From positions 10,666,001-10,730,000 of the forward strand of contig OZ076409.1 in the NCBI GenBank assembly GCA_964187785.1: a stretch of 64,000 nt of DNA, written 5' to 3'. Made by a program: the position numbers and the translations under genes. How positions within the stretch are numbered: position 1 is the stretch's first letter; each line of letters starts with the position of its first letter. This stretch comes from Amphiscolops sp. MND2022. Its lineage: Eukaryota. Positions 2,518 to 28,469 of this stretch are shown piece by piece. The notes below the pieces were generated by a model, which worked only from the letters and a program-made list of their open reading frames with translations, ran no database searches and had not been told where the DNA came from.

Positions 2518-3251
2518 TGTAACGACAAGCTCTCACCATTGTCGCCGTAACCATACGAGTTAGAGGAACACATGATATGGGTATTTGCCCGGGACAGGCG
2601 CCCATGACCATGAGCTCATTTTGCCTCTTTCGGGTAAAAACTGTCCCGTCAGAGGAGGATTCCGCTTCTTGTGAAGTGCTCGCCGGCCTGATCCAGTCTG
2701 TAATTGCTATCAGTAGTGCGCATTACGCTTTTTCTTCGAAACCAACACTTAGACAGCCTTTAAAAAATGCATATGGTGGAAAGGAAAAATCAAGTTTTAT
2801 CGAAGTTACACAGGAGATCGAAATGAGTAGCTCACGAGCTGTTACAACAAGAAAATACGAAAATTACTACATAATTAGCACTTTTGAGGCAGCAATTAGC
2901 CGGGGACACAAGCACGGATGCTTGGTCAAGCTAATTGACTCATTTTTGGTAATCACAGCGTCTTGTAACGCTTCGCTGAAGAAAGCACTGGTTGGAAGAA
3001 AGTTCAGTCCGTTTTGGCAGAAATTTGAGTCTTTTTCTGACAGTGGCCGTATTTTTCTGCAATTTTCTTGTTCGGTTGGGGTCTCTCTCGAGTCTTCTGC
3101 TCAATTTCTCTTCAATTCTGTGGGCAGGTACTTGAATAAAGACACGCTGCCATCTAGCGGAATATGACTCTTTAGTAGAGGAGATATAGTCCCTTGAACG
3201 AAATTTTCATCGAAATTTTCGAAATCCTGCACTCGATAGGTAATCGCTACA
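2518..3251 (-). repeat. 3' LTR of the giant Gypsy element
   Basis: TGTAACGA...TCGCTACA (7/8 inverted termini); matches 21014-21747 apart from two visible substitutions (ccatacgag/ccataagag, aatcctgc/aatcgtgc). Confidence 0.97.
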
Positions 3252-3261
3252 TACACTCCCC
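3252..3261 (-). promoter_or_regulatory. Short polypurine-tract-like sequence
   Basis: Minus strand GGGGAGTGTA immediately before the 3' LTR. Confidence 0.5.
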
Positions 3262-4267
3262 GGGGTCTAGTCTTGACGTCCCCGTCAAGTGTGGGTTGGC
3301 GTCATTGAGTCTGTACCCAGAGTCATCTGTGTCCCACTGAGGAGGTAGAGTGCACATCAAGTAGCGCTGGACGGTTCATTGGGACATCGTCAAGTTGGCC
3401 TCGTGGAAGTGTTTTTGACCCAGCGTTGCTGCATTTTGATCAAATCAATACAATTTTGTATACAAATCTTATACGGCAAGGTCATTATTTTTGTAGCCTG
3501 TCGTGAGCAATTCAGGCGTTAAAATTTCTTTTCGGCCATTCAAAAAAAAAAAATTTTTTTATTTGCCGTTAGTGTTAAAACTTGTTTTAAGGTCAACGAC
3601 CATCACATGACTGTTCGAAACTTATTTTCCGAAGCTCGGGAGCTTCGCACTGCTTGGCGTTTGATAAAAGTTCTTTTGGTAAGCAGTTGCCATAAAATCA
3701 ATCAGTTAGTACAGTCAATTTAAAATTTCTTTTGCGAGACTTACTCTCGATCCTATCAGGTAGCTCAAGAAAAACAATGGTCGAGGTTCATCAATCTTTT
3801 TATTCTATCCATTTCTCATCTCTCCCTTTTTGTTTCCTTTTCCTTCATCTTTTTCTTTTTGTCTTTTTCGACAATAGCAACAGTGTAGACAATAACTAGT
3901 AACTAAAAGGGTGTAATAGCACCGAAAATTTAGAGCACGGAGTGCGCACAGCGCATCCACATGTAGCATAAGGTAGCATGAAAAAGCACTAACTGCAAAC
4001 ACAAATTGCAAATTGAATATTGCATCTAACTAAGGCAAGGCAAAGACGCAGTTTCATGGTTGGGTTGCCGGTCCCAAAACGGGATAATAAGGAGGATGAA
4101 GCCCGGGGGCTTCATCTCCACTTGGAGATTTTTACCCATGACCAATTGGCATTTCCATAATCGAAGTTTAGCAACAACAGAGATTGAAACCATGAGATTT
4201 CGCAAAAGTTCATCTAGCATAAGACTATTGAAGTTGGAAATCGAATGACGACAAAGTTAGGTTTGTT

Positions 4268-7200
4268 TTATTGGGTGGCGGAGGAGTGACGCGCTCTGGG
4301 GGAGACGTCGGCCTTTGGTTGCAGTTCGGATAGAGATCCTCTTCGCGTATTTCCTCCTCGCAGGACTGGCCTTGGTTCGGCGCTGGCAGTTTCATGGGTC
4401 CTGGGAGCCGTATTTGAGCCACTAGGGCCATTTTCTGCGGCTACAGGAGTTGAGGCTTCTGGCGAATGTTCTTGCGCTGCATTGGTTGAGTCGCTAACAT
4501 TGGCAGAACTTGTGGTCGACGTGGAGATTGGGATCTGCACATCCAATCTACTGGCATTAAACAGGTGCGGCAGATCCAGCGGTCTATTGCGGGTGGCAAT
4601 GGGTCGTTTCTGCTTCGCACTGAGTTTCGGGCGTAGATCAGGTCGGCCCCAGAGCCCGCAGGCTCTGGACCAGTTGTCCCTGTTAGCATGTTCTATAATT
4701 TGTCTGGAGGCTTCCCATTCGGGTCCGAGGGGATCACTCAGCAATTCCATGACGTGGTAGCAAGTCTCCGCTGGCATGTCGCTTCCCATAGTAACCCTCG
4801 CCTCTGGATTCCAAACAGGCATTGTCAGTGGGGGAATGATCAAACCTTTTAGGCGCCCTTGGCGTTCCTCCAGGGTCCTTGACATCCACACGCCTAGTTT
4901 GTAGTGATCGCGATAGGCGTACTGTTCATCAAAGCCCTTCTCGACCATGCTGATTGGCTTAGCCCGGATATAACCGATGGGTCCTCGCCAGTACCTGGCT
5001 GGAAGCTTGATCATTTGAAAATTATACTCCTGGTTTGTGTGACCGCCCATGGTTTGCACGCATTCGGTCACGTACTTCCTGAGGTGTGCGAAACTCCAAT
5101 TGAATCGCTGTGGGATTCCGAGGTGATCTAGGGGAGAATTGTACCAATTCACCGGGCCGTATTCGCGAGGTAAAGGGCACGCCTTCTTTGTTCGGGCTTT
5201 GAGAATACCGGCCAGGTTTTCGTCTTGCTGCGTCTCATTCTTTATGGTGGTATACATGCGGGGTACTAGCAGAAACAGCCCACGTTCAAGCATCTGTTGA
5301 TAGTTGTGCGGTTTCACGTTCTTCAGATAAGTCAGGATGGATACTGTTAGTGTCTCCGAGGCCAGTCGCAGAGGCTTGGTGGGATAGCGAAGTATCCCGG
5401 TTGGGCCAAATATCGGAGTTAGCACGGGTGCTAACACCGGTACGAGATCTTCGACTTCAGCCAAAGTGAAATCTGCCAGCTGGTTAGGTGTCAAAAATCC
5501 AGCTACCTCGGTCACTAGCTGACGTCCGTCATATAATGGTTGGTGCTTATCCACCCCCACGAAAAGTCCCGAGGCAAAGACCAGACTGCAATATATCCAG
5601 TGATATAATGAAGTTGTCATGCGCTCCAGGTGAGCGGGATAATCCTGAGCGTCTTTTCGTTGTAACAGCTTGGCTAAGGCGGTGAGGCCTGAGATATTCC
5701 CTCGTGCAATCACCAGATATGAAAATAGCCATTCCAGATTACACTCGGTAACTAGGTCGGTCAATATCATCACTGGGCCAGCTACAAAGCGTTTCTGCCC
5801 GAAAGTGAGCATCAGTGCAAAGAGTTCGTTTACTTGCATGGTACCGATAATCTCGCTGATTTCGATCAACCAGTTTTCGTCTAAATCGAACTCGACTCGA
5901 ATAACATCGGGACTCCAACCCAATCCCAAACAGATGGCAAACTGGTCGGTTGACATCCCAAGCTCTTTTGCAATGTCTGCTACGGTGGTAGTTTGTAGCC
6001 GCTGGTACCAGGCGTCGTAGGTGCTGCTGAAGGCTTGGATTTCAGCCTGAGTTTCGCTCGTCAGTTTTGCAGCAATGTACTTCATTCCCACTGATAATTG
6101 ATCGATTGTGAGGTCCTTGGCAAATTGAACTCGCGGGATGGCTCGTTCTACTTCTCGGTCGCTGGGGACTTTGCTCATTATGGCAGTGACTTCTGCAAGA
6201 TCAGTTTTGATACAAGTCTTTCCACCGGAGGAGCGCGCGCGCTCTATCCAGTTATTCAGGCGGATTGCCTCGCATTCAGCCGTACTGGGCTCTGGGACTC
6301 GCCTTTCTCCGTCGTTGTTGAATACTAACAAGCCCATACGAGTGCCGTGATCAAAGTAGATGGCATCGTCGATTGTCAGCTGCGCGTTCCCTGTCTTTTC
6401 CACTGACTGTAGCACTTTAGACACTGAGGCAATATACCCCATGTAGGACAGCCAGGAGGGACGAAAGTCGTTGGAGCTAATCCGCATATTGGGCGCGCAG
6501 ATCGCAAAGTCTATTTCTCTACACTTGCAAACTTCTGTCACCATGTAGATAAATCTCTGCAAGGCGGGGGGCCATTGGCAGAAACCTGGGGGTGTCACGA
6601 ACAGGGCTGGCACCTTGAGTTTATCCTTTAAGATGTTTTGGGCTTTTTCCATGGCTCGGGCCATGTTCAATGCTGCATTGCGTACTGTTGTTCGCTGTGC
6701 TGGACTTGGATTCATAATTTCAACGTTCGCGATCTGGGCCATTAGTCCTTCACAGGCCATGTGATCGAAAACGTTGCTGATGATCACTCTGCGTGGGGGT
6801 GGCTCTTTGAAGGTTCCTGTCATCTCAGGGTCAAACATGGTGACCAACACTTCGGCCATCTCGGGAATACGTGACAGCGGTAGAGTAAAAACCATCACGT
6901 CTGACAGCACATTGTCAATGGGGACATTCTTGAGGAATGTTGAGTCTATAAGTAAGGCGAAGCGCGCACGCTGCAACCTTTCTTTTGGCATTGGTAGCTG
7001 GGCTTCGAGGTCACGGGCGTACCGTGGGTTGATCTCGAAGGTCTCTCCAGCGTTGAGGAAATATCGGTCAGCGAATTGCCCACGAAGGTCAATGTTGAGG
7101 GCATCCAAGTAATTGTCTTCCACGTTTGGCAGCATATTCATTGCCTTCCCTAGCCATGGCGGCTCATTGGTAGGAGTGTGGTCGGGGCGGATTGGACGAT

Positions 7201-8635
7201 TCATGAATACAGGTACATTCGCCTTCTTCAATTTCGCATGCTCTTCGTCATTCGGAGGACACATGTTCTTCTCAAATAGCCATTCGGGCGATACTATAAC
7301 TGCCGATTCCCAGATACGTCGGGAGTCCTTGGTGACCAGTGTGCCCTTTGTGTTTTGCATGGGACTCAGGTACGTCGGCTGTTTCGTAAAGGTCCTCTTA
7401 GTTGGGTGTTGAATCGCCTGTTTGCGGAGTGGGGTTCCAGTTGGACCACTGTTGGTTACCTTCAATCCTGGGTAGTCACCCATTATGTCCTCGACAGTTC
7501 GCTGGGATTCAGGGGTGCCTTGATAACCCACAGTTTGCTCCGTTTGTGGCTGTCTTGATGTGGACGGCTTAGGAGTCGCTCGTTGAGCCAGCGACTCGCG
7601 TGTTGTAGACTGCGTGGATGGTGGTTGCGGCAGTCCTTGTTGTTCGCCTGTTACGTCCGGTTGTGATTGGGGTGAGGGAAGCACGCATGCTTCCGACACT
7701 TTTGACTTCGTTTGGTCTGGCGCTTTGGAGGTTGTGGCCTTCTCGTTGGAAATCTTTTTGTCGGGTGGTGGCTTGCTCGAGGGGCTGTCACGGGCAGTCA
7801 ATGGTTGTTGAGTCTTCTTTGTTGGAGAAGGGTCGTTGCGCTTTCTGGAGGCAGGGCGGCTCTCTCCTCCCCCCTTTTGAGAAGAGCGGGAAGGCGAACG
7901 ACTGCGCTCCACCGTCACGGTGCGGGAGTGTCCTGGCTGTTCAGATTGAGTATTGATGTGAGGAATAGTGATGACATCTGGACGTGCTTGAGTTGAAGTC
8001 ACATTGTCGTTGCGAATAGTGACAGTGGGCAGAGCAATTCGGCGTAGTTCAGGCCAACACTGCTCCATGGATCGCATGAAATCATCGTAATTGGGGTTGG
8101 CAGCCACTGCTTGCAGTGCTGAGATGACTGCTTGCTCCGCCATTGATTGATTGGGCAAGTTAGGCACTATAGGAGCAGGAGTGCGCGCACGCACTACTGC
8201 TTGTGGTGTTGATGCAGGAGGTGGCGGTGGAGGTGGAGGCGGGCAAGAAGGGATCTGTAGAGATCTGGTTTGATGGACTCCGCCATTCGCAGGACTGTAT
8301 GAGATCGCCGCACGATCATCCGTGAAGTGATGCGTGAGATCATGGCCGTGCCACACTCCATCTTGGTATGTCATGGATCGTTGGAACCCAGGAAACCCTG
8401 AAGTAATTGATATTGTCAGCATTGGGGCTTGCAATTGTGATTCCATCTGGGCAATGATTGCCGCCACCCCGGCAACTGTAGCTGGCGACAGACCTTGGTC
8501 GAGTCTGTCTCGAATAAAGGCAATTTGTGGGGTACGTTGGACACGCGCAGTGTCATAGACGCGTTGCCCCAAGGCAGGAGAGTTATCTGTAGACCTTGGC
8601 GGGACGTTGTTGCTTCTATCGTTATCTTGGTTCAT
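4268..8635 (-). CDS. ORF3 of the giant element: 1455-aa protein with an SGNH/GDSL-hydrolase-like domain, function unknown
   Basis: Uninterrupted 4.4-kb ATG-TAA ORF between pol and the 3' LTR; P/S/T-rich N-terminus; motif order LLIDS / VFTLPLSRI / PRRVIISNVFDH / LFVTPP / DFRPS. Confidence 0.85.
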   Translation of the reverse strand: MNQDNDRSNNVPPRSTDNSPALGQRVYDTARVQRTPQIAFIRDRLDQGLSPATVAGVAAIIAQMESQLQAPMLTISITSGFPGFQRSMTYQDGVWHGHDLTHHFTDDRAAISYSPANGGVHQTRSLQIPSCPPPPPPPPPASTPQAVVRARTPAPIVPNLPNQSMAEQAVISALQAVAANPNYDDFMRSMEQCWPELRRIALPTVTIRNDNVTSTQARPDVITIPHINTQSEQPGHSRTVTVERSRSPSRSSQKGGGESRPASRKRNDPSPTKKTQQPLTARDSPSSKPPPDKKISNEKATTSKAPDQTKSKVSEACVLPSPQSQPDVTGEQQGLPQPPSTQSTTRESLAQRATPKPSTSRQPQTEQTVGYQGTPESQRTVEDIMGDYPGLKVTNSGPTGTPLRKQAIQHPTKRTFTKQPTYLSPMQNTKGTLVTKDSRRIWESAVIVSPEWLFEKNMCPPNDEEHAKLKKANVPVFMNRPIRPDHTPTNEPPWLGKAMNMLPNVEDNYLDALNIDLRGQFADRYFLNAGETFEINPRYARDLEAQLPMPKERLQRARFALLIDSTFLKNVPIDNVLSDVMVFTLPLSRIPEMAEVLVTMFDPEMTGTFKEPPPRRVIISNVFDHMACEGLMAQIANVEIMNPSPAQRTTVRNAALNMARAMEKAQNILKDKLKVPALFVTPPGFCQWPPALQRFIYMVTEVCKCREIDFAICAPNMRISSNDFRPSWLSYMGYIASVSKVLQSVEKTGNAQLTIDDAIYFDHGTRMGLLVFNNDGERRVPEPSTAECEAIRLNNWIERARSSGGKTCIKTDLAEVTAIMSKVPSDREVERAIPRVQFAKDLTIDQLSVGMKYIAAKLTSETQAEIQAFSSTYDAWYQRLQTTTVADIAKELGMSTDQFAICLGLGWSPDVIRVEFDLDENWLIEISEIIGTMQVNELFALMLTFGQKRFVAGPVMILTDLVTECNLEWLFSYLVIARGNISGLTALAKLLQRKDAQDYPAHLERMTTSLYHWIYCSLVFASGLFVGVDKHQPLYDGRQLVTEVAGFLTPNQLADFTLAEVEDLVPVLAPVLTPIFGPTGILRYPTKPLRLASETLTVSILTYLKNVKPHNYQQMLERGLFLLVPRMYTTIKNETQQDENLAGILKARTKKACPLPREYGPVNWYNSPLDHLGIPQRFNWSFAHLRKYVTECVQTMGGHTNQEYNFQMIKLPARYWRGPIGYIRAKPISMVEKGFDEQYAYRDHYKLGVWMSRTLEERQGRLKGLIIPPLTMPVWNPEARVTMGSDMPAETCYHVMELLSDPLGPEWEASRQIIEHANRDNWSRACGLWGRPDLRPKLSAKQKRPIATRNRPLDLPHLFNASRLDVQIPISTSTTSSANVSDSTNAAQEHSPEASTPVAAENGPSGSNTAPRTHETASAEPRPVLRGGNTRRGSLSELQPKADVSPRARHSSATQ

Positions 8636-8645
8636 GACGACAATT

Positions 8646-8660
8646 CTGAAAGAGTGCAGG
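8646..8660 (-). promoter_or_regulatory. Putative splice acceptor for ORF3 subgenomic mRNA
   Basis: Minus strand cctgcactctttcAG, then aattgtcgtcATG; the ATG is 10 nt downstream of the AG. Confidence 0.5.
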
Positions 8661-8858
8661 TCGATTGTAGCACACTTGATAGTAGGACAACACCATAGGT
8701 CATTTTAAGGGTAATACCAGGGAGAGTAATAGAATGTCACACACTAACATTAAAGAAAAGGTAACGTAACAGTTTCACATAAACTCCGTGTCGACTTATT
8801 AAACTTAATCGAGCGGATAAAAAACAAAAAAACAAAAAAAAGCGGACAAACGAAAGCT

Positions 8859-11800
8859 TTACGGAAAGCTAGCGACGCTTGCAATAGATACGTAAACGCG
8901 ATCGTGAAGAACGACGGTCAGGGGGGTGTCGGCGAATACGTCCATCAAACAGGTATAAAAATCAAAAAGATTACGTATTGGGCGTTCAGGATCAATGATG
9001 GCAAAGTGTACTTCCATCGCCTCCAAACGCTCGAGTAACATTTTTAAAAGATCAAGACATCCAAAGAGAATATCAGCGAGCATAGGGCAGCGAGGTGTAG
9101 CTCGTGTGATTAAAAGGTGGATAGTTTGAGGATGGCCGTCTATCAAAGATGTGGGTAGCGTTACAATATTGCCAACCTCCGGTCGAAGTTGAAAGATTGC
9201 ATCTGCACCATGCTCACGAATGACGTAACGAAGAGCGGCGGAACTAGTTTCCAGATTTGCGGGACAACATAAAACGATATGATGGGGAGTCTGCAGGAAG
9301 TCCGTATTGGCATACTGCACATAGTCAACCAATTGAGGTCTCACGGCTCCATGGTACACTAACTCTCGTCCGGGGTCTTTGGAGAGAGCATCGTCACATG
9401 CATTCGGGAGGAGGCCCTTGATTGCGCCCAAGTCTTGCCACACAGATCGCGGCAATGATTGATTATCAATATTAGCCCTGGACCATGTATCCAGTGCGTG
9501 CAGGGCCGATTGGAGCGATACAGGACTAGGAAATGAGTGTGTCCATTCGTCCAGGAATCTGATTCGTGAAAAATTCGATAAAACTGCTATAATAAGTTCC
9601 AGCCACCATTCAAACTTAATTTTACCACGATATAGGTCTATGGTGTGGAAACAAGTGATTCTATCAGGAGAGGCCATCGTTCGCAAACTCTCCAGACAGG
9701 TGATCAAGTTAGTGGGATGAACCAGGTCGGATGTTTGTTTGGCCGTAACTAGTAGCCACCAGTTGCTTGTAGGCTGATAAACGTCTCCTGGTTTTGCGGT
9801 GACGTTGTATTTGTCATACAAGAGGTCAGCAGGAATACAGCGTATCATTTGGATAGGCTCTCGCTCATAGTTGAAAGGACCAAAAGCAATATTTGTAGGC
9901 AAAGGGGGAACAGTGATGGGTAAGGTGAATTCCAAACCAACAAGATCATAGGTCCACTCCTTGAACCTTGGGCACGGGGCCTTTGCTATCGTAGAATCTT
10001 TCATTTTGGATAGGATATAGTCCACGGGATATGGAGTGTCGCTGCGTTGTAGCCCAGTATAGGTTTTCTCGGCTCGAATAACCAAACGGTCAACCATTCC
10101 GCTCGGAAGCGATTTCTCCTGTTCACGTGCTAGCAGGACTCCCTGGGATTTGATTGGGAAGCCCGCGTGGACCATGTAGTTACATTCGCAGTTTCGTAGG
10201 CCACATGTTCCGCAACGATATCTGGGAGTACGATTGTGTCGCAGTCCATAACGAGCGTTGGTTGATTCTGGCGGTGCTGCTTGATCTGAGGTAACCGCCG
10301 CGCTAGGGGCAGAAGAGTCAGTGTCCATAGATGGAGTGCTACGAACACGGGCAGGAGTGTTAGGCCTGGCGTGTGTTATACGAGGAGGTCTTCCTCTGGG
10401 ACGCCCTCTTTTGCGAGCGCCTCTAATAGCACCTCTCCGTTGGTGACCACGTGGCAACGAGGCTCGCGGCCTCGCTCTGCCTGGCGGACGTCCCCGGGGT
10501 CCACGCCCTCTAGGAGCATTGGAGAGTTTCGTGGTAGTTGCTACATCGTTGTTGGTGGGAACTGTCGCAGGGGGAATTGATCCCTTTTCGTTATTGGTTG
10601 TTGGTGTTTCAGCACCGTTGTCCTCTAGGGTTGGGTTGAGAACATTGTCATCGATTAGGGGCCAAATGGGAAAGTTACTCAACATATCCGTAAGAGATGG
10701 ATTTGTCAATAATGGGGCGGATGTACCGGTCAAAGAGGTGGCGGCTCTTTTGGTGGGTATGTGGATAGTAGGATTCGGGGCGATGTCCAATGCGTCGGGT
10801 ACTGCTTCATTCTCTGAGAACAGAGCCTCCATTGCAGGTAGTGGTGATATTGGCATTTCGGGAATAGGCGCAGGTTCATCTACATGTGATGACAAGATAG
10901 CACTTTCATCAGGACTAGCCCGAACACTCGATAGGAGTACATCAGAACGTTCATCGTCAGACTCAGTCGAAGAGTAGCCAAATTGTTGATAATGTAGGCG
11001 GCTGCCACCTGCGCGCATGTGTGTGCGTAACCGTGTGTCCATCCAATGTCTTTGTCGAGAAGGCAAAGAGGCATTGCTGGCTTCTGAAATTGGTTCCTCT
11101 ACACGGTAAGAAGGTTGCGAAGCATCGTCTCTCACCTCCTCATGGGATTGTTCTGGATCAGGGTCCATGATAATAGCAACCTCGCCGTTATGCGCAGGAA
11201 CAGCTGCCCATTCTGTTGGACCACCATGATGCGGTTTCAATCGTTCGAAATGCACTTTCTGACCAGTGTCAAGTATGTAGACACGTCCCTCTTGTAGCAC
11301 TCGTGCTACCTTGTGAGGACCACGCCACGCTCTCATCAATTTAGGAGATCCCTTTTGAGGAATGTATCGGCAGAATACCCAAACAGGTTCGCCCACTTCG
11401 TAGGCTTTAGCACGAATTGCTCTGTCGTACTTCAATTTTTGTCGTTGCTGGGCTTGATGCGTGTTGCGACGGACTAAGTCATGAATCTCTTGTTGTCGAG
11501 CCAGCACATGTTCCACATAGGCTTCGTGTGATTCGAATGACTGAGTTGCAAATTCTGGATACAAGAAAGTCAGGGGTATAGCTTTTTCCATGCCTCTGGT
11601 CAGCATATACGGGGAGAATCCAGTAGTGGCATGACGTGTGGAGTTGTATGCACCCATAACTTCATCTAGGTACTGATCCCAGTCACGCATTCGTCTAGAG
11701 CAGAATACACGCAGTAGGGTGAGTAGCGTTCGGTTTTGTCGCTCTACCAACCCTTGAGTCCTGGGGTGGCCAGCAGTTGAGGTTACTTTGGTCACTTGGG

Positions 11801-13328: not shown

Positions 13329-14105
13329 TCACAGTTTGCGACTCTCAGGTGGTCCTTGCCATTGGTGCAGAATACCCGATATAGCTACACCACTAGCATC
13401 TGTGTCGAGAACAAATTCGCCTTCAGTGTCAGGTTGCGCCAGAGCAGTGGCTTCCATTAGTGCCACTTTGATGCTGTTGAAGGCTCGCTGCTGCTCCTCC
13501 CCCCATAAAAATGAAGAGGCTCCTCCCGTCATCGCGTGTAAAGGGGCAACTAGTTTTGCATGCCACGGGATAAAATCCCGATAGTAGTTGGCAAAACCCA
13601 AGAAACTCTGCAATTCAGTCTTGGTTCGCGGGATATCCCATTCTTTCAGTTTGGTGACAGCTTTTGGATCTGGCTTGATACCATCTGCGGATACTACCCG
13701 GCCCAAATATTTGATCTCCGATTTCATGAAGTCACACTTGGAGACTCTCATTTTGAACCCGGCCTCACGCAGGCATTGGAATACTTCGCGTAGTCTATCC
13801 ATGTGATCCTCGATGGTCTCGGTAGCAATCACAATGTCATCGATGTAGGCCATAACCATACTTCCTTCACGGTTCACTATTCTTTGTAGCGCTCGCGCTA
13901 TTGCCCGTTGAAATGTTGCTGATGCGTTACACATACCAAAAGGCATACGCCGCCACTCAAATAACCCAAGTTCACAAGGGAAGGCAGTCTTTTGACGATC
14001 GGCTTTTCGGATAGGAATTTGCCAGAATGCCCACGCCAAGTCAATACTGGTATAGATTTTGGCTTTGCCCAATCGGGATAGACTCTCATCGATGCGTGGC
14101 AAGGG
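13329..14105 (-). CDS. Reverse transcriptase core and start of RNase H
   Basis: IDLAWAFWQI, MPFGMCNASATFQR, YIDD (13836-13847), YLG, FLGFANYYRDFI, LDTDASG. Confidence 0.95.
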   Translation of the reverse strand, partial: PLPRIDESLSRLGKAKIYTSIDLAWAFWQIPIRKADRQKTAFPCELGLFEWRRMPFGMCNASATFQRAIARALQRIVNREGSMVMAYIDDIVIATETIEDHMDRLREVFQCLREAGFKMRVSKCDFMKSEIKYLGRVVSADGIKPDPKAVTKLKEWDIPRTKTELQSFLGFANYYRDFIPWHAKLVAPLHAMTGGASSFLWGEEQQRAFNSIKVALMEATALAQPDTEGEFVLDTDASGVAISGILHQWQGPPESRKL

Positions 14106-17100
14106 CTAAGCGTCTTTGATAGTCACTTCATTAAGTGGCCGAAAATCACAACAGAATCGCAATTCACCACTCTTCTTTTTGACCATAACAATTCCACTCG
14201 CCCAAGGGGATAAGGAAGGTTGTATCATTCCCAAAGCTAGCAAGTCACGAACTTCTTGGTTAGCACGTTCTGCCTTGTCAGGCGACATTCGTCTTGCACC
14301 TTCGCGGTGGGGTACAGCCCCTGGCTCTACTTCCACCGAGTGCTTAGCGATTTTACACTTGCCAATGTCGGCTTTGAATTTCATAAACAAATCATCAAAT
14401 TCGTTCAAAAGTTTACTAAGCGTGTCGCTGGCGGTCGATCCCCACAAACCGCGTACCTCGTCGAGTTGTGCTTCCGGGCCCGGTATCGGAGCCATTAACG
14501 CCGGATCGGTTCGTTTTTTTACTTCGCGCTCGGACAAGCCTAGTTCTGACGGTTCGGTAGAGGACAAAAACTCAAATTCAGATGAAGAACTATATTCAGA
14601 AGAAGAATCAAGGTTCATCTGTTCGTAAACTTTACAAACATAATTTGCATTTGACTGCTGAGTTTCACTTGATTGTCCGGGGACAATTTGGGGGATGGCT
14701 TTATGAACCATCGTTACGGGTACCGCGGTTCCTAAAAGGGTGCCCTTTTTAATCCGCTGCACGTTGCTGGTAAGATTTCCTAAACTGACGTAAAGGAAGC
14801 CAGTCTCCCCCACGGTCGCCACGGTGTCCTCTAAAAAGATGGCATTTTTAAACATTCGGTTAGGTGTTAGAAAATTGATTAGCACGGTCCGAAACATGAA
14901 AGGTTCTAAGTTGTCTACAAGCAATTTAGCGCGTAGTATTGCGCGTTCAAAAGGTTGCAACACTACGTCCTGTGCAATCGCAACCGACGAATTGAGTGAT
15001 TCGTTACTTACTTGTGTGTGGACATGGTACCACACTGGTTCAGAGGGAGCTCGGACAATGACTTTCATCGCGGTTAAATCTACCAAGACTTGATAAGCTC
15101 TTAGGAAGTTTCTGCCCAGGAGGAAGTCTTCCACTCCCATAGCGTCATCGACTACCACGAAGTTAGTTTCCAATTCGTAGCCTCCCAATTGGAACTTGAC
15201 TTTCTCCGCTAGACCAAAAGTCTTAATCGTCTTTCCATTCGCGGCATATAAGTCAATACCATAAGGTCGTAAGAGTGTCCCAGTGCGCACAGCGACTCGA
15301 TTGTAGGCTGAGAAGGTGAGGATGGACACTCCTGATCCAGTGTCTATCAGACCACGTAATGGCACGGGAGCAGCATCGGGAACCACGAATGAAACTACGA
15401 GCGACGCACGCTCATCGATTCTCGCTTCACCAGTTGGTTCTTGAGCATCAATGTTATAGCAGCGCAGCTCCTGCGGTCCCAAGCAGATTCCAGGAGGAAA
15501 CGCGTCAGTAATGATAGTGGCACCAAAACGCATGTCATCACCATCTATGCAAACTTTGACTGGAATCGGAGAATAGGCATGATACGTCGAAGTGACACCT
15601 TTTACTTGCCATTCTTCCGGTTGGGGCAGGGTCAATTGTCGGCAATTCTCGTTTGCGGTTATCTCGTCTATCAGGGCGTCTATGGTGAGTTCTGGGCGGG
15701 TTTCTCTCTCAATCGCCAATAGTAATCGGACAGACATGATAGTGCGTCCCGAGGGATCAAAAGTAGTTGGCTCCGGGTTCGTCTGGATTTGGATTTTGCC
15801 ACATGTGACGGTAAGGGGTGTCGTCACGTGAGCGGCTTCAGCAGGGCGAAGCATGAGTACCATTTCGCTGTCACTCATTGTTTGAGAAGTAGATGGCTGT
15901 TCAGCCCAGAGGCTGTAGGCCAAATCCTCATGTACTGGAACATTTTGGCATTGTGATGCAGAGTGTTCGGTCATGCCACAATTTACACAGAATACGGGGC
16001 CAGAACATGCAGAGGCCACATTATTCTCGCATAAGTTTACTCGCTCTTCGGGTGCAGCGCGAGCCGCTGGTTTCCTTGCTAGGTCTCGACTTGGGCATTC
16101 TCTTGCGAAGTGACCTGGTAGTCCACAGTTGAAGCATGCTCCTTGGGGAATCACTCTCGCTGGTTGCTGTTGTGCAGGAGCCTGTTTTACCGATACAGGG
16201 CCTGGTGGAGCCATCTGGGGTTTAGTCTCTCGTTGTCCTTGGTTTGGAGGTAGTACGTTTTGCGGTAGGCCTGGTGCTGGATGAACCAATTTTCCTGGCA
16301 CGAAAGGGTGAGGCCTCGATCTCATTGCATACCTTGGGTCGTAAGGTTTTGATGTGTTTGGGCGATGCCGTTGCAATTGTCTCGTGGTGAACCTTAGGGA
16401 TTCTACAGTTGGTGGTTCGGTCAGATATGCCTCTGCAGCGTACACCACGGCCAACTCTTGTCGCAGCGTCGGGTCGTTAATGCCATCTATAAAACGTTGC
16501 AGGATCTCATAACGACGCGTAGTGATAGGCTCGTCTGGGAAACCTTGGGTGCGCAGACCTTCTAATGCGTCCAAGAATTGCATCCAATCCTCTTTTTCCT
16601 GTTGGACACGAGACATGAAGGTTTGCCTGACGTGCATGCGATTTCCACCGGTTCCAAATCTGCTGGCCAAGAGAGAGAATACCTTGTCGGGCTCGTCTCG
16701 TTCAGGTTCAGATTTGTTGATTATATAATTTCTTGCCTCTCCTTCCAGGTGATCGATGATAGCCCAGGCTCTGTCGATCTTTGGGGATTTTGCATGTACC
16801 CTTTCTAGAAATCGCTTCATCACTGGGAGCCATCCATCGACAGAACCATCTTTTGTGCCTTTGTATACCGTAGGGCGCACCCTAGTTTGATCTCGATTAG
16901 CAATCAGCGGCGCTAGTTCCTTGGACATGGCTTTGGATATTGCCTCGGTAAACCTAAGTTGCTCCGGTGATATAGGCGCTTCTTCACTGATGGCTGGTGG
17001 CGGGATACTGCTGCCTCGCGTTGAGTTGACAGAGTCATCGGTGTTCTCGGGGAGAGTCACTTCTCGACGTCGAGTGCTGCTGGCGCATGGGTTGCCCGGG

Positions 17101-18626
17101 GGTAATTCGTCGTTCGCGGTTTGGAATTCTGCAGCTGATTCTCCCAAAGTTGCATTTGCTGTTTGGAAGGTGCTGGTGACTTCAGTTAGCACGTTTGTGC
17201 GTGTGGGCTCTCGCAGGTCGCTGATACCCATGCTTGAAGTGTCGATAGTTATCATCTCGCATGTTGGTTCTTTCTTGTGAGTTTTGGTCGTGGGTGGAAT
17301 ATTTTTTGTTGATACCGCGGATGGGATAAATTTCGTCGATGTTGACGCAGCTTCTCCATTTGAGACCAGAGTTTGTGGCAGGGGCGCGTACCTGGCCAAA
17401 TGTTGTTTAGAGCCAGATGGGTTTGTTGAAATCGTCACACTCTCTTTTGGCTTGAGGGAGACGCTTTTCATGGGTTTTGGCAGTGATATATCAGTGTCTT
17501 GCAGCAACTCTTTGATGGTGTTGCTTACTGGTGCGGGTTGAGGTTGGATATTCTTCAACATAGTGCCCATTGCTTGTATTTGTGAACATACCTCTTGCAG
17601 TTGAGCTTCCATGCGTACCTCTCTTTCGGTCACCATGTCCTTTATTTCGGCCATTCGATAACCCATGGCATCCATTCGGGCTGCCTGAATTTCATGTCCT
17701 TGCGCTTGTCGCTCAGTCGATGTTCGCAGTTCAGTTTGTACGGCTTCTATCTCCTCCATTATTGACTGATGCTCTCTATCGCACCTTGCTTTACGCTCAA
17801 ACAGTTGTGAAGCAGCTTGCTTCACGCCTATCTGGGCATCTAATAGAGCTTTGCGTGCTTTCGCTGCTTCATGTACGGCTCGATATGCTGAAGATCGGGC
17901 AGATGCAGCTTTTGATGAGGGTGAGGATGAGCGCGAGTCGCCATGAGGTCCGGTAGTACCAGTCTGTGCTAGTAGAGCTGGAGGCCGTACTTGCTTACCC
18001 TTCCCAGATGCTCGGGGGGCCGTAGCTTCTCGAAGACGTGTCCTGGCATAGTTCATACCCCCAACATAAGACATTTGTTGTAATATCTCTGCCGTGTTTG
18101 CAGTGCTCTCGCTGGCCATGCTGGGAGCTTTGAGTCGTCCAGTGGCATTCAAGCAACTCATTTCAGTTTCTTCCTCAGCGTTTGTCCTGTTGGAGTTGGG
18201 CCATGTTCCTGCTTCGTCAGTACCGAAAGGTGTAACGGCTACTTTGGTCAGTTCTTGTAACCATTTGGACGTGTGCGCCTGACTTCCTGTTTCGTCTGCT
18301 GAACCTCCGATATCATCGGTAGCCTTGGCGATTGGCTTAGCCTGATACTCCTCCGATGCGTCGTCTGACATAGGGTCTGAAAAATCGGGTTCCATAACGA
18401 AACTGTCGTCAGTTGGCCAATCTTCCTCCCTGGGGTCTGAGGTCAGGTCTGATATTGCACTGAGATTTGTCTCGCACCCCGTTGGGTCTGGTGTCTTTGA
18501 TGCTTCAGTGCATCGCGAGGTGTCCTTCCTCCCCCCTTTTGAATGATTAGAGCGGCGCTGGGTGTTCGTGCGGCTTAATGTTCTCGTTATAGAAATCCAA
18601 AGGTTACGCAAACTGTTGGGTTTCAT
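14106..18626 (-). CDS. Gag (coiled coil, capsid, 2 CCHC knuckles), pseudo-protease, protease, dUTPase-like domain and RT N-terminus
   Basis: CFNCGLPGHFAREC and CVNCGMTEHSASQC; LIDTGSGVS...FLLGRNFL; SPWASGIVMVKKKSGELRFCCDFRPLN. Confidence 0.92.
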   Translation of the reverse strand: MKPNSLRNLWISITRTLSRTNTQRRSNHSKGGRKDTSRCTEASKTPDPTGCETNLSAISDLTSDPREEDWPTDDSFVMEPDFSDPMSDDASEEYQAKPIAKATDDIGGSADETGSQAHTSKWLQELTKVAVTPFGTDEAGTWPNSNRTNAEEETEMSCLNATGRLKAPSMASESTANTAEILQQMSYVGGMNYARTRLREATAPRASGKGKQVRPPALLAQTGTTGPHGDSRSSSPSSKAASARSSAYRAVHEAAKARKALLDAQIGVKQAASQLFERKARCDREHQSIMEEIEAVQTELRTSTERQAQGHEIQAARMDAMGYRMAEIKDMVTEREVRMEAQLQEVCSQIQAMGTMLKNIQPQPAPVSNTIKELLQDTDISLPKPMKSVSLKPKESVTISTNPSGSKQHLARYAPLPQTLVSNGEAASTSTKFIPSAVSTKNIPPTTKTHKKEPTCEMITIDTSSMGISDLREPTRTNVLTEVTSTFQTANATLGESAAEFQTANDELPPGNPCASSTRRREVTLPENTDDSVNSTRGSSIPPPAISEEAPISPEQLRFTEAISKAMSKELAPLIANRDQTRVRPTVYKGTKDGSVDGWLPVMKRFLERVHAKSPKIDRAWAIIDHLEGEARNYIINKSEPERDEPDKVFSLLASRFGTGGNRMHVRQTFMSRVQQEKEDWMQFLDALEGLRTQGFPDEPITTRRYEILQRFIDGINDPTLRQELAVVYAAEAYLTEPPTVESLRFTTRQLQRHRPNTSKPYDPRYAMRSRPHPFVPGKLVHPAPGLPQNVLPPNQGQRETKPQMAPPGPVSVKQAPAQQQPARVIPQGACFNCGLPGHFARECPSRDLARKPAARAAPEERVNLCENNVASACSGPVFCVNCGMTEHSASQCQNVPVHEDLAYSLWAEQPSTSQTMSDSEMVLMLRPAEAAHVTTPLTVTCGKIQIQTNPEPTTFDPSGRTIMSVRLLLAIERETRPELTIDALIDEITANENCRQLTLPQPEEWQVKGVTSTYHAYSPIPVKVCIDGDDMRFGATIITDAFPPGICLGPQELRCYNIDAQEPTGEARIDERASLVVSFVVPDAAPVPLRGLIDTGSGVSILTFSAYNRVAVRTGTLLRPYGIDLYAANGKTIKTFGLAEKVKFQLGGYELETNFVVVDDAMGVEDFLLGRNFLRAYQVLVDLTAMKVIVRAPSEPVWYHVHTQVSNESLNSSVAIAQDVVLQPFERAILRAKLLVDNLEPFMFRTVLINFLTPNRMFKNAIFLEDTVATVGETGFLYVSLGNLTSNVQRIKKGTLLGTAVPVTMVHKAIPQIVPGQSSETQQSNANYVCKVYEQMNLDSSSEYSSSSEFEFLSSTEPSELGLSEREVKKRTDPALMAPIPGPEAQLDEVRGLWGSTASDTLSKLLNEFDDLFMKFKADIGKCKIAKHSVEVEPGAVPHREGARRMSPDKAERANQEVRDLLALGMIQPSLSPWASGIVMVKKKSGELRFCCDFRPLNEVTIKDA

Positions 18627-20979
18627 GACTTCGCACGTCTCGAAAAAGTCAAAAATCGATCTAGGGGTCGTACCGGCGTGAAACTTACACAGCGCGTTGA
18701 TACCGTGGTGTGGGGCCGGAAACCGTGCGTTTGGGGCTTACGGAATAGCTGATTCGCAAACAATTGGGTTTTTAGACAATTTTTGAGTTTTTTATATTTC
18801 TTTATGAATGACTAAGATGCCTCGAACGCAACGTCTAATCGTCGGAAACACTTGAAAATTGGCCACCTGACCTTGTGGTAGGTGTACTACACGATAGCAA
18901 AATTAAATTTAAGCTAAGGTTTTTATTTCAAGATTCAGGCTGATCCGGACGTTCGGTACCCTTAGTCATCAAGATACGTCAATTTTCATGCTTACTTCAA
19001 GATTATTCTCCATTGAAAAAAGCTAGCGGGCTCAAAATTTACAAAACAACGTAATATCTGGTACAAATGATAGAAATGAACTGCAATTCAACCTCGTTTT
19101 TCAATTAAGGTACTCGGATCACTCAGGAAAAATTTGAAAAATTACCCTCTATGCCCAACTTTTTGAGTGGTACGTTTTTTCTATTTTCTCATCAAGTACC
19201 GGTTGAATAGATACGAAACTTTGTGGTTACAGCCGATGAGTGTGTACAATGCCGGTGAAACCATCAAAAGAAAGGGCGGACGCTTATTTGAGGTTTCGAC
19301 CTTACTTGGACAACACTCATAAAGAAAAACAATTTTGGACTACTTTTTTTTACAAATTGGCTAAGAGGGTCACCTCAAAAAGTGATAGGGCTGAAAAAAT
19401 GGGATTTACGTGTTGCCCCACTACTCGTAGTACTAGGATGAACCCTCGATTAGGTGTGCCCGTTAAACACGAGGCACCGACAGTCCTTCAGTTTTGGATT
19501 ATTTCGGCAGTTTTACAGTCCTCTGAAGTTGAAACGTTAGAGAACTTTTCTCGATTTTGGTGAAAGTTACGTCCACCAAATTTTCGGCACTAGCGTTATT
19601 TTTAGTGGTGGTTATGAAAGTGCAACCACCTTTTGGCTAAGGTCCAAGAATTAATGACCCGACCTTAGCTCAGAGACAGTCCGGATTTTAGGAAAATGGA
19701 GGTTTTTCAGTGCATTTTTCTACTTTTCTCAGCACTGAAAAGGAATTTTGGGATGCGGTCTTTACTGTAGATCGTTAAATTTACCGAATAAACTGAAAAT
19801 GATAGCCCGGGGGCTATTCTAAGCGTAAAAGTGTTCGTCAATAGTCAAGTTGGGTTTCTTCTAAGAATACTATAGAAAAACCTCAAAATCACAGTTTTCG
19901 TAATTTTCTTTAAGAAGCAGTGGTTATAATTACCAAAATGGGTATTGTTGGGTACCGGCAGGTGTACCCCAACCTAATTGCAACCATACGGGGGTGTTTA
20001 AAAGCTTCCATACAAATTCCCCCACAAGTTCAAAGTGCTAAAGTGTTCAGTTTTTCAAAAACGGGGTTTTTTCCTCACAAAACCTATACTAAGTGCCTTT
20101 TCGGGCAACTTTGAGTACTTCGTCGCGTTTTTTGCGAACTCGTTAGAGTCCCGAGCTACTTTTATTTAATTTCTGCAGGTGTGTGGCTATCACCAAGAGC
20201 GCTCGCGCTCATGTAGGTGTTTCGCCTCAAAATGGCCAAATTTGGCACTTTTCGTCGAAAATACATGAAAAAACGCACTTTTTTCGCACAAATAGGTGCA
20301 AAAGCACACACATAGTTGCAGAAGGCTCGTAAAAACATTGGCAAATGGTCGTATACAAAATTTTGAGCGACCCAAAAAATTTTTTCAACCTGACTCAAAA
20401 ATATCATACAACCCGGACTGACGAGTCGTGTCTTCTCGTTCTTTTTGCTCATCATCCAGAACAGCCAGAGACAAACAGGTTGCACCATTAGACACGTCAG
20501 CATTTGTAGTACGTCTCCACCAAATTTCATTTCTCTAGGTTGCTTGTGCGGGAAATGGGATCGGTGAGTCGTATAACTCGTTTCGGCAGATTGTAAGATT
20601 CCTCTGAGCAAGGATCATCCTCTTCTCAACACTCACTTCATTGGTCATAAAAAGCTGAAAAAGGCTGGAAAACACCTGTTAACACTTCTAGCAGCCTCCC
20701 AGCGGCTTGCTAGACCAATTTTATGAGTGACCCGTTAAGAGGGTAGGCTATTTCGATCGTTACCTGTCAACTACTAAAAAAGCATCAAAATCACAATATA
20801 CAACGCTTTTTTACAAGATTTACCTTTATCCACCGGGGTTGAAGTCTTCAATAACACACAGGGTAAAAATATGGAAAAACTCTGCTTCTCTCTTCTTTCC
20901 ATCAGAGTCGGGTCGTACTTGGCGTCAATCACCAGAGGGTCGGCTATTTTAAAACCATTAAGGGAAGCACTTCGAAGCG

Positions 20980-20997
20980 ATCCCTCTGTGGTCGCCA
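20980..20997 (-). promoter_or_regulatory. Primer-binding site, probably tRNA-Arg
   Basis: Minus strand TGGCGACCACAGAGGGAT, complementary to a tRNA 3' end ...ATCCCTCTGTGGTCGCCA, which resembles metazoan tRNA-Arg ends; begins 16 nt from the LTR. Confidence 0.75.
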
Positions 20998-21013
20998 AAA
21001 AATGATGTCTCTA

Positions 21014-21747
21014 TGTAACGACAAGCTCTCACCATTGTCGCCGTAACCATAAGAGTTAGAGGAACACATGATATGGGTATTTGCCCGGGACAGGCGCCCA
21101 TGACCATGAGCTCATTTTGCCTCTTTCGGGTAAAAACTGTCCCGTCAGAGGAGGATTCCGCTTCTTGTGAAGTGCTCGCCGGCCTGATCCAGTCTGTAAT
21201 TGCTATCAGTAGTGCGCATTACGCTTTTTCTTCGAAACCAACACTTAGACAGCCTTTAAAAAATGCATATGGTGGAAAGGAAAAATCAAGTTTTATCGAA
21301 GTTACACAGGAGATCGAAATGAGTAGCTCACGAGCTGTTACAACAAGAAAATACGAAAATTACTACATAATTAGCACTTTTGAGGCAGCAATTAGCCGGG
21401 GACACAAGCACGGATGCTTGGTCAAGCTAATTGACTCATTTTTGGTAATCACAGCGTCTTGTAACGCTTCGCTGAAGAAAGCACTGGTTGGAAGAAAGTT
21501 CAGTCCGTTTTGGCAGAAATTTGAGTCTTTTTCTGACAGTGGCCGTATTTTTCTGCAATTTTCTTGTTCGGTTGGGGTCTCTCTCGAGTCTTCTGCTCAA
21601 TTTCTCTTCAATTCTGTGGGCAGGTACTTGAATAAAGACACGCTGCCATCTAGCGGAATATGACTCTTTAGTAGAGGAGATATAGTCCCTTGAACGAAAT
21701 TTTCATCGAAATTTTCGAAATCGTGCACTCGATAGGTAATCGCTACA
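21014..21747 (-). repeat. 5' LTR of the giant Gypsy element
   Basis: Direct repeat of 2518-3251; lies beside the PBS and upstream of gag on the minus strand. Confidence 0.97.
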
Positions 21748-22030
21748 AGACACATACCGGTAAAGTGGATTTCAGTCACGCAGCGTAATCTGTTTATTCC
21801 GTAAAATGGTCAATCAACGTAAGTCAGTCAAGACGGTCTATGCCTGGACGGTGTAGCTGTGTCAACGCGCGTGCGTAATGGAAAATAGTGTAAATTAGTC
21901 AAGGCGCGTAGTTAGTTTAAAGTGGAAGTCCAAAAATACATTTTTCCGTAATTCAGTCAAATTTTGATTAACTTCCACTTCCACTTATTGCAAGTATAGC
22001 GATCTGCAATTCTCATGATAAGAAGTTGAA

Positions 22031-27938: not shown

Positions 27939-28146
27939 TGTTAAAGGACACTACTAGCTATTCTGCTAAATACTGATGAATGGTAAATGATGACAAGAAT
28001 GTATTGCTGAACTGTACTTAGACCTTGTGGTGAATGATCTGATTTTGAATATACTTTAGTTCGATTCTTGTTTACAAATATATAATAAAGTTTAGACAAC
28101 ATTTAGTCTTTTCAAGACAGAGAGGTTAACTTAGCTCTCTCTCACA
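27939..28146 (-). repeat. 3' LTR of the Mag-like element
   Basis: TGTTAAAGG...CTCTCACA; direct repeat of 33227-33434. Confidence 0.93.
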
Positions 28147-28469
28147 TCCCTTTGATTAATATTAAACTCCATGGATGGATGTGGGTTTTTTACTTTAACA
28201 GAAAGGTTGCCTTAACGAGGCTAACGTATGACAAAACAAAATTTTGTTGCGTTAATGTATAAATCTTGCAACAAGGTAGCAAGATGAACTTGAGGTTAAC
28301 GAAAGTAGATAAGGCTAGTTGGTACTAGTTAAAATTGTTAGTTTTGTTTCATTTGGGTTTTCAATGTTTTGGGTCACTTTCTTCTTCCCCCGTTGTTCTG
28401 CTGATTCGGGTGACCATTACGTTTTGACCGTAAAAGTGTTCGTTGACGACTGCGTCCTCCTCTTCTTGG

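Follow-up and report, generated by a model that had tools for sequence, protein, structure and literature searches.

The window analyzed here, a stretch of 64,000 nucleotides (nt) from Amphiscolops sp. MND2022 (contig OZ076409.1, positions 10,666,001 to 10,730,000), contains at positions 2518-21747, on the minus strand, a long terminal repeat (LTR) retrotransposon with a total length of 19,230 nt. We read it with good confidence as a recently inserted copy of a high-copy Ty3/Gypsy family that carries a conserved extension of its integrase and a third open reading frame (ORF3), with functions as proposed below. Its coding capacity is roughly threefold that of a usual element of this kind. The added modules are AT-hook-like cores, a four-cysteine motif and two predicted macro-type domains at the end of Pol, together with an ORF3 that is predicted to hold an SGNH/GDSL-hydrolase-fold domain.

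A young and abundant Ty3/Gypsy family

The window copy was compared with 10 sibling copies from the same genome (n = 11) and with single copies of two diverged families, B and C. Its ends and noncoding parts were as follows.

21748..21750, no strand: target-site duplication (TSD) AGA beside the 5' LTR, from flank comparison
21014..21747, minus strand: 5' LTR, 734 nt, with TG...CA ends and 2 mismatches to the 3' LTR
20978..20997, minus strand: candidate primer-binding site, a 20-mer starting TGG, identical in 11/11 copies and in family C
18627..21013, minus strand: leader, 2,387 nt, up to the first gag-pol ATG
3256..3261, minus strand: candidate polypurine tract GGGGAG, short, 4 nt ahead of the 3' LTR
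2518..3251, minus strand: 3' LTR, 734 nt, found as a direct-repeat match to the 5' LTR
2515..2517, no strand: TSD AGA beside the 3' LTR, from flank comparison

The two LTRs were 99.7% identical (mismatches at 2556 and 3227) and spaced 18,496 nt from start to start, enclosing an internal region of 17.8 kb, and the TSD was a perfect 3 bp (AGA). The size, the near-identical LTRs and the leader of about 2.4 kb given in an earlier note on this DNA were all reproduced. The candidate primer-binding site, the TGG 20-mer, lay 16 nt past the 5' LTR and behind a run of T, and no tRNA was matched to it; at the opposite end, the last 30 nt ahead of the 3' LTR were invariant across all 11 copies. The leader held one small tandem repeat (20287-20324) and no long ORF common to the copies examined.

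Membership in the Ty3/Gypsy group follows from the enzymes. Pfam families were found along one frame in the order protease, reverse transcriptase (RT), RNase H, integrase. P0008, a database protein of 2,175 amino acids (aa) that is 97% identical and extends from the protease to the end of Pol, was compared with the sequences in the PDB, where it matched Ty3 Gag-Pol (E 1e-100) and Ty3 RT (E 1.8e-69), followed by enzymes of caulimovirus (1e-45), foamy virus (1e-39) and MLV/XMRV (1e-34). Because the best solved match is Ty3 Gag-Pol, far ahead of the caulimovirus, foamy virus and gammaretroviral enzymes, the element is a Ty3/Gypsy-type (Metaviridae-type) LTR retrotransposon. The nearest named proteins were uncharacterized amphibian proteins at 39-41% identity.

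The organism's own genome (1.07 Gb, 1,929 contigs, ~37% GC) was searched with the LTR, which yielded 1,830 first-look candidates; the 40 that were scored all matched the full 734 nt at 98-100% identity. Of these, 32 formed 16 same-strand pairs, 14 of them spaced 18,469-18,498 nt and the remaining two 18,346 and 16,746 nt. The 10 siblings that were fetched lay on 7 other chromosome-scale contigs and were 96.6-98.0% identical to the window copy (2.0-3.4% divergence). According to the earlier note, siblings lacking the extra modules would have told against a distinct lineage; every one of the 10 kept the full 19.2-kb architecture, with the same order of parts and a length of 19,225-19,232 nt. Each of the 11 copies had 0-3 mismatches per 734 nt between its own two LTRs (99.6-100% identity) and was flanked by a perfect 3-bp duplication, the sequence of which differed between copies. 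The near-identical LTR pairs, set beside a between-copy divergence of 2-3%, imply that the lineages diverged while replicating and that each copy was inserted very recently. The family is abundant, young and recently active, and its elements are mobilized by integrase, leaving a 3-bp duplication. Gag-pol was uninterrupted in 4/11 copies and ORF3 in 7/11.

Since most divergence predates insertion, the ratio of nonsynonymous to synonymous change (dN/dS) between copies is informative; it was calculated by the Nei-Gojobori method and pooled over the 55 pairs of the 11 copies. Values for the core enzymes were 0.03 (protease), 0.05 (RT-RNase H) and 0.07 (integrase). Those for the added parts of Pol were 0.12 (domain A) and 0.10 (domain B), and within ORF3 they were 0.05 for the N-terminal region, 0.08 for the SGNH-like domain, 0.10 for the helical domain and 0.05 for residues 1041-1360; the long N-terminal part of Gag gave 0.10-0.14. 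Purifying selection acts on every add-on, nearly as strongly as on the core enzymes, and the add-ons therefore serve the element.

Two further observations concern the noncoding parts and the insertion sites. In the 11-copy alignment, the LTRs had p-distances of 0.015-0.016, the 3' untranslated part 0.016 and the leader 0.028, and the corresponding synonymous distance (pS) was 0.02-0.09; lower divergence in noncoding parts than at synonymous sites hints at constraint on the LTRs, the leader and the 3' region. A TSD of 4-6 bp is usual for Ty3/Gypsy and retroviral integrases; that of the present group was 3 bp in 11/11 copies and in the one copy of family C (AAT), whose Pol is 63% identical. A literature search on 3-bp TSDs in Gypsy elements returned nothing useful.

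Gag-Pol and its core enzymes

The gag-pol frame and the parts recognized in it by sequence were as follows.

8859..18626, minus strand: gag-pol frame of 3,255 codons, ending at the stop codon 8859-8861, with two in-frame stops in this copy
15945..16139, minus strand: two Gag CCHC zinc knuckles (Pfam zf-CCHC, E 1.1e-7)
15393..15770, minus strand: pre-protease segment with a weak echo of the C-terminal half of retropepsin (hhalign versus the protease)
15099..15362, minus strand: aspartic protease of retropepsin type, DTGS (Pfam gag-asp_proteas, E 1.7e-5, just under the cut-off)
14106..14108, minus strand: in-frame TAG in a conserved motif of RT, private to the window copy
13701..14270, minus strand: RT (Pfam RVT_1, E 2.5e-32)
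13329..13331, minus strand: in-frame TGA in RNase H, private to the window copy
13107..13505, minus strand: RNase H (Pfam RT_RNaseH_2 and RT_RNaseH, families typical of Gypsy and Bel elements)
11763..12272, minus strand: integrase, H2C2 zinc domain and catalytic core (Pfam Integrase_H2C2, E 2e-16; rve, E 1.1e-8)

All 11 copies shared the ATG at 18626, the first in the frame. Read in the standard code, the window copy has a single frame in three abutting stop-to-stop pieces (18737-14106, 14105-13329 and 13328-8859), so that the earlier description of one Gag-Pol frame of about 3,255 codons held for the length and the single frame but made no mention of the two stops that interrupt it in this copy. 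Neither of the two stops was present in any of the 10 siblings, and no unusual code or programmed read-through is needed to account for them. An alternative genetic code was rejected: the stops are one TAG and one TGA, and the 97%-identical P0008 reads through the region with no stops. By itself, the window copy is unable to make RT, RNase H or integrase, while its ORF3 is open.

A tandem protease had also been proposed for this element, and this claim was not supported. Pfam showed one protease only and no match for the pre-protease segment (~125 residues); the segment aligned with the C-terminal half of the protease at E 0.016 over 39 columns (hhalign), had no conserved catalytic Asp motif, and its Asp-containing stretch was not kept in family B. 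A second retropepsin domain was rejected, the hhalign echo being too weak for a domain.

Gag itself began with an unusually long N-terminal part of ~580 residues ahead of the capsid-like region (16880-18626, frame positions ~38-620). This part was of low complexity, was predicted to contain a helical or coiled stretch, and had a single Pfam match, at chance level (DUF2203, E 1.6).

Extension of the integrase end of Pol

Past the integrase core and a GPY/F-like tail, Pol continued through an acidic Ser-rich linker, a basic RGRP stretch, a four-Cys motif and ~440 residues without any profile match.

10368..10499, minus strand: basic stretch with three RGRP cores of AT-hook type (motif scan; no Pfam match)
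10182..10250, minus strand: invariant Y..LR..R.P.Y.C.TCG.R.C.C motif with four Cys (invariant alignment columns; low model confidence)
9471..9899, minus strand: Pol C-terminal domain A, predicted macro-like fold (AlphaFold2 predicted local distance difference test [pLDDT] 63-87; SARS-CoV macrodomain II, Z 7.0)
8892..9350, minus strand: Pol C-terminal domain B, predicted TARG1/DarG-like macro fold (TARG1 Z 14.4-15.2; Foldseek E 6e-7, template modeling score [TM] 0.73)

An AT-hook is defined by an R-G-R-P core flanked by basic residues. Such cores lay at positions ~2749, 2778 and 2782 of the gag-pol frame, and their R-G-R-P was nearly invariant among relatives. The four-Cys motif is possibly zinc-binding, judging from its invariant columns.

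The C-terminal 846 aa of Pol had no Pfam match at E <= 10. For the macro part, nothing was found in PADLOC (including DarG) or NCBIfam, and comparisons with PDB sequences by phmmer and by a six-sequence family profile gave none or chance-level matches. The C-terminal part of Pol was matched by 14 database clusters, 37-97% identical, of which several also had integrase domains joined to it. The last 471 residues were modeled with AlphaFold2 from 14 sequences, and two regions of this model were better than the rest, residues 130-240 (pLDDT 63-87) and 330-457 (pLDDT 60-74). With Foldseek, the model had 107 PDB matches at E <= 1e-3. PARP14 macro domains 1 and 2 came first (E 2.7e-7 over 393 columns), and TARG1 and DarG were the other leading matches; TARG1 aligned with a TM of 0.70-0.73 and a root-mean-square deviation (rmsd) of 2.3-2.8 A.

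Domain B (model residues 309-461) was aligned structurally with VIA to TARG1 (Z 14.4-15.2, 135-145 residues aligned), DarG (Z 13.1-13.6), the macro domain of ALC1 (Z 11.8), Poa1p (Z 11.4), and macro domains of alphaviruses, rubella virus and coronaviruses (Z 8-10). On the strength of this model, domain B is assigned to the macro fold of TARG1/DarG type. Domain A (model residues ~126-246) is probably a degenerate macro fold: a search independent of Foldseek paired it with SARS-CoV macrodomain II (Z 7.0 and 6.8, 102-104 residues aligned; for the Z 7.0 match, 102 residues at rmsd 2.8), it also matched the macro-like N-terminal domains of leucine aminopeptidases, and the PARP14 pair aligned across both domains (258 residues, model 123-459). 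In the model, A and B shared eight secondary-structure elements in the same order. For domain A, the ESM Atlas offered sub-threshold leads only, among them a macro cluster at 0.86.

ORF3

ORF3 follows gag-pol and comprises, in the window copy, the parts listed here.

4268..8635, minus strand: ORF3, 1,455 codons, uninterrupted in the window copy (ATG 8635, stop 4268-4270)
8285..8635, minus strand: N-terminal conserved region (conservation among relatives)
6386..6970, minus strand: predicted SGNH/GDSL-hydrolase-like domain (pLDDT 85-97; VIA wide Z 7.5-10.4)
5618..6130, minus strand: predicted helical domain (pLDDT 82-98)

The stop-to-stop frame spans 1,478 residues (8704-4268), and its ATG at 8635 was found in 11/11 copies. 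Relatives of ORF3 occurred at 96, 83, 57, 43, 41 and 39% identity, and at E <= 1e-3 an exhaustive HMMER search returned 448 representative proteins, the majority of them fragments. Residues 57-197 of the frame matched a short ORF3 of family B (tblastn). No Pfam family was matched at E <= 10, a search of PDB sequences gave none or chance-level matches, and the ESM Atlas gave no usable match.

Residues 470-1360 were modeled from 141 sequences. Two regions of the model were confident, an alpha/beta domain at model residues 110-350 (pLDDT 85-97) and a helical domain at 390-560 (pLDDT 82-98), the rest being poor; the helical domain, for all its confident model, stayed outside all fold-match lists. 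Weak Foldseek matches in the PDB and the BFVD viral library were mainly to platelet-activating factor (PAF) acetylhydrolase Ib, GDSL lipases and phage SGNH proteins. In the VIA wide search, which aligned all 48,161 representative chains without Foldseek, the best 50/50 entries for model residues 110-304 were of SGNH/GDSL fold (Z 7.5-10.4). The top match was PAF acetylhydrolase Ib (Z 10.4, 178 residues aligned), which is also the relative named for the esterases of long interspersed elements (LINEs). From the model, ORF3 is taken to hold an SGNH/GDSL-hydrolase-fold domain. With strands read from the model, the Ser of a D-S-T triplet right after strand 1 was present in 27/35 sequences and an Asn after strand 3 in 40/43.

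Apart from the tandem protease, the accessory modules named in the earlier note were each recovered at their own level: the AT-hooks of the integrase as conserved motifs, the two macrodomains as predicted folds, better defined for B (TARG1/DarG Z 13-15) and weaker for A (Z ~7) with the PARP14 tandem spanning both, the separate 1,455-aa ORF3 as an intact frame with no stops, and its SGNH character as a predicted fold in the Foldseek-independent search.

Several results weigh against these assignments. Because neither the macro parts nor the SGNH part is recognized in any sequence library (Pfam at E <= 10, PDB, PADLOC, NCBIfam), both assignments rest on AlphaFold2 models, and the model of the Pol C terminus is moderate (mean pLDDT 52; domain B 60-74). 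The matches of domain A are middling (Z ~7), and hhalign of A versus B was not significant (E 0.08 and 0.18). For ORF3, Foldseek gave no match at E <= 1e-3 in the PDB or BFVD, the Z of ~10 is little above the background of 7-8 stated for the tool, and the Gly of SGNH block II and the Asp-x-x-His of block V could not be placed; among candidate His residues, His648 was kept in 37/42 sequences but His786 in only 23/41. Finally, the one copy of family B lacked the SGNH part of ORF3.

Diverged families and other relatives

The same genome was found to encode the diverged database relatives of these proteins, at 98-100% identity and with first-look candidates in the thousands. One copy each of families B and C was examined. 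That of family C was 18.9 kb long with LTRs of 714 nt; it had the macro module and an ORF3 of 1,430 aa that was 38% identical. The copy of family B was ~16.4 kb long with LTRs of ~600 nt, and had one gag-pol frame of 3,220 codons (45.5% identical to that of the window). It too had the macro module, followed by two short ORFs in which only the N-terminal region of ORF3 was matched; its lack of the SGNH part implies that this module is dispensable for some relatives. The long ORF3 was thus common to two of the three families examined. The C-terminal module was also present in full in a further relative of 2,998 aa (41% identity, E 4e-110). Since the macro module is kept in families B and C and in the 2,998-aa relative, sequence comparison argues that it is a lineage character.

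Unlike the window family and family B with their single fused frame, family C had its gag (832 aa) and its pol (2,418 aa) in different, overlapping frames (element positions ~12350-12540); in the single copy seen, this overlap could reflect either a programmed frameshift or a mutation. Two related Pol proteins had other enzymes. P0251 (56% identity over RT-RNase H) had a near-threshold match to Lipase_GDSL_2 at residues 1328-1469 (30 bits versus a cut-off of 32.9), which follows the integrase and so occupies the position of the macro tandem in the window element; a link between this GDSL-like domain and ORF3 was rejected, there being no BLASTP similarity. P0284 (3,697 aa, 45% identity over part of RT-integrase) carried superfamily-1 helicase families (PF13087, PF13086, PF01443, PF13604 and PF13245) beside RT and integrase. 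Such sequence matches suggest that relatives in this Gypsy group take up varied accessory enzymes.

In protein collections, the family and its relatives are annotated as nameless "genes" by the thousand, in clusters of 657 and 1,094 members. Recognition of these as one lineage of transposable elements cleans up the annotation of this genome.

Proposed function and alternatives

Because the AT-hook cores, the Cys motif and the macro tandem are covalently attached at the integrase end of Pol, they would travel with the complex of complementary DNA (cDNA) and integrase. We propose that the AT-hooks and the macro tandem ride on integrase in the preintegration complex, where the AT-hooks may help to hold AT-rich DNA and could tether the complex to AT-rich chromatin, and where the macro tandem may bind or remove ADP-ribose on element proteins or cDNA, countering host ADP-ribosylation. 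ORF3 would act as a cytosolic esterase-type helper, like the esterase ORFs of rotifer LTR elements and of CR1/L2 LINEs. For the macro module, binding or removal of ADP-ribose is the reading that we prefer and infer from the models, with roughly equal weight given to a noncatalytic reader or tether. The stronger claim that the tandem actively erases ADP-ribose on the cDNA, the RNA or the integration-complex proteins of the element is speculative, and we consider it rather unlikely.

The alternative that best withstands the evidence is a structural role for accessory domains that would be pseudo-enzymes. The macro tandem would then serve as a reader or nucleic acid binder, comparable to SARS-CoV macrodomains II/III or to the macro domains of macroH2A and ALC1, and with the AT-hooks would tether the intasome to chromatin in the way of chromoviral chromodomains; the SGNH fold would bind RNA or protein, with no hydrolysis, in the manner of the OSK domain of Oskar. 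The best matches of domain A are the SARS-unique macrodomains (Z 6.8-7.0), which to our knowledge do not bind ADP-ribose; the macro domains of ALC1 and macroH2A are among the matches of domain B, and the Oskar OSK domain is among those of ORF3 (Z 8.3). The unplaced SGNH blocks II and V, the lack of macro and SGNH profile matches, and the position of the AT-hook cores directly upstream of the macro tandem point the same way. However, domain B is nearest to the hydrolases TARG1 and DarG (Z 15 and 13.6) and further from reader macro domains (~9-12), and the conserved Ser after strand 1 and Asn after strand 3 of ORF3 are those expected of an active SGNH enzyme. As to tethering, the eleven 3-bp duplications (7 of 33 bases G or C, in a genome of ~37% GC) are too few to show a target preference. 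We judge the pseudo-enzyme alternative to be less likely than not, and worth keeping in view.

Much less probable is that ORF3 is an envelope-type gene of an errantivirus-like element, with the SGNH domain as a receptor-destroying esterase comparable to the hemagglutinin-esterases of influenza C virus and some nidoviruses. Its position is that of env genes in retrovirus-like Gypsy elements, and SGNH-fold esterases do occur in viral surface and phage tail proteins (phage G7C gp63.1, Z 8.9; N4 tail, Z 8.1). Against this, the N terminus of ORF3 was hydrophilic and had no signal peptide, a Kyte-Doolittle scan found no clear membrane segment (one marginal Pro-rich hydrophobic stretch, 1087-1105), and no fusion protein fold was among its matches. 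Given the absence of a signal peptide and of any clear membrane segment, ORF3 is not an envelope protein; the GDSL ORF3s of rotifers, in the available part of their description, were likewise judged not to be env-like for the same reasons (PMC5408684).

That the extra length is foreign to the element, through nested insertions, captured host gene fragments or an assembly artifact, was weighed because 19.2 kb is far more than a typical Gypsy element measures. Nothing was found in favor of this reading, which has next to no probability and is refuted by the siblings on 7 other contigs (10/10 differing by no more than 7 nt in length and alike in the order of their parts), by the location of the add-ons in continuous reading frames under purifying selection and by the layout common to diverged families, and no LTR-like direct repeats were found inside the element.

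Other repeats in the window

A second, small LTR element was present at 27939-33434, bounded by 208-nt direct repeats (27939-28146 and 33227-33434; 96% identical, spacing 5,288), with minus-strand open frames of 316 and 295 aa between them. It is probably the Mag-like element mentioned in the earlier note. Identical direct-repeat pairs of at least 300 nt lay at 23680-25288, 33874-35025 and 59035-63712, with start-to-start spacings of 1,309, 852 and 4,378 nt, respectively.

Comparison with known systems

Fixation of extra protein domains is rare among LTR retrotransposons, and every instance points to a step of the life cycle at which the element meets its host. Each single add-on of the present element has some precedent among retroelements; as a set, they are unusual for such elements. 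In the literature searched, with Repbase, Dfam and GyDB outside that search, no report was found of a macro domain in the Pol of a Ty3/Gypsy element, nor of a Ty3/Gypsy integrase extended by macro-type domains, whether or not accompanied by AT-hooks and an SGNH ORF3.

In size, the nearest likenesses are Burro and Ogre, which are also oversized Gypsy-like LTR elements with many copies and accessory coding capacity. As summarized in the portion of a review that was available, Burro of planarians exceeds 30 kb and carries AIR1, Smc, MATH, BIR, ankyrin and an in-frame env as add-ons, whereas Ogre of legumes owes its size largely to long LTRs (Arkhipova and Yushenova 2019, PMC6431247). None of the Burro accessory set, as listed there, was among the Pfam matches of the window element, even at E <= 10. 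The element is neither Burro nor Ogre, its add-ons being different, and its 17.8-kb internal region is below the 20 kb that the same review sets as the threshold for "giant" transposons (PMC6431247).

The site of the Pol extension recalls that of chromoviruses, Gypsy elements in which a chromodomain after the integrase is a known accessory domain (PMC6338049, in the part available). Both fuse a chromatin- or ligand-binding module to the C terminus of integrase, but the module of chromoviruses is a chromodomain, and the window element, which has no chromodomain by Pfam, has AT-hooks and macro domains. By analogy, a module with a part in steering or protecting integration would naturally sit at the C terminus of integrase.

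Other retroelements have acquired domains related to ADP-ribose independently. Epsilon-like endogenous retroviruses (ERVs) of ray-finned fish have extra ORFs for macro domain proteins (PMC4977317, in an excerpt citing Basta et al. 2009). They share with the window element the combination of a reverse-transcribing LTR element and a macro domain; however, they are Retroviridae with the macro domain in a separate ORF, in contrast to the window element, a Ty3/Gypsy retrotransposon whose integrase is extended at its C terminus, behind AT-hooks, by two macro-type domains. In Gypsy elements of brown algae, Pol has a NADAR domain, which is ADP-ribose related (PMC12477816, in the part available), so that there too Pol captured a domain of ADP-ribose metabolism that is conserved across the families of a lineage. 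Outside retroelements, domain B is most like human TARG1 (C6orf130) and bacterial DarG (Z 13-15, 135-145 of ~150 residues, rmsd ~3 A), enzymes that take ADP-ribose off proteins and DNA, from which it differs in having only 12-15% sequence identity and no profile match and in sitting in a retroelement polyprotein. If the macro domain is active, ADP-ribosylation becomes a testable host defense against retroelements in animals, and a DNA-integrating element joins the known viral macrodomain counter-defenses. If the tandem does erase ADP-ribose, an animal host would be using ADP-ribosylation of nucleic acids or proteins to defend itself against retroelements, and ADP-ribose-reversing domains would have been captured repeatedly by retroelements as a counter-defense (macro domains here and in fish ERVs, NADAR in brown-alga Gypsy), in parallel to the macrodomains of RNA viruses and to the bacterial DarT-DarG pair.

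For ORF3, the closest parallels are the Vesta and Juno LTR retrotransposons of bdelloid rotifers, whose ORF3 encodes a GDSL esterase (Rodriguez et al. 2017, PMC5408684). As far as the available part of that account describes them, these elements are likewise Gypsy-like, with a third ORF after pol that has an SGNH/GDSL-type domain and neither a coiled coil nor membrane segments. The rotifer ORF3s are recognizable by sequence with S, G, N and H intact, whereas the window ORF3 is matched by fold only with blocks II and V unclear; at 1,455 aa with further domains, it is also unlike them in extent, and where the rotifer elements carry a dUTPase or a DEDDy exonuclease, the window element has macro domains instead. 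Among non-LTR retrotransposons, the CR1, L2 and RTEX elements have an esterase in ORF1 that was proposed, in the same part of that account, to act in particle assembly or membrane-linked transport (PMC5408684). The likeness is that of an SGNH protein encoded by a retroelement, which for the window ORF3 is a fold match only, the best being to PAF acetylhydrolase Ib. ORF3 would be a second, independent case, after the rotifers, of an esterase-fold ORF3 in an LTR element, and it supports the esterase fold as a recurrent helper module of retroelements.

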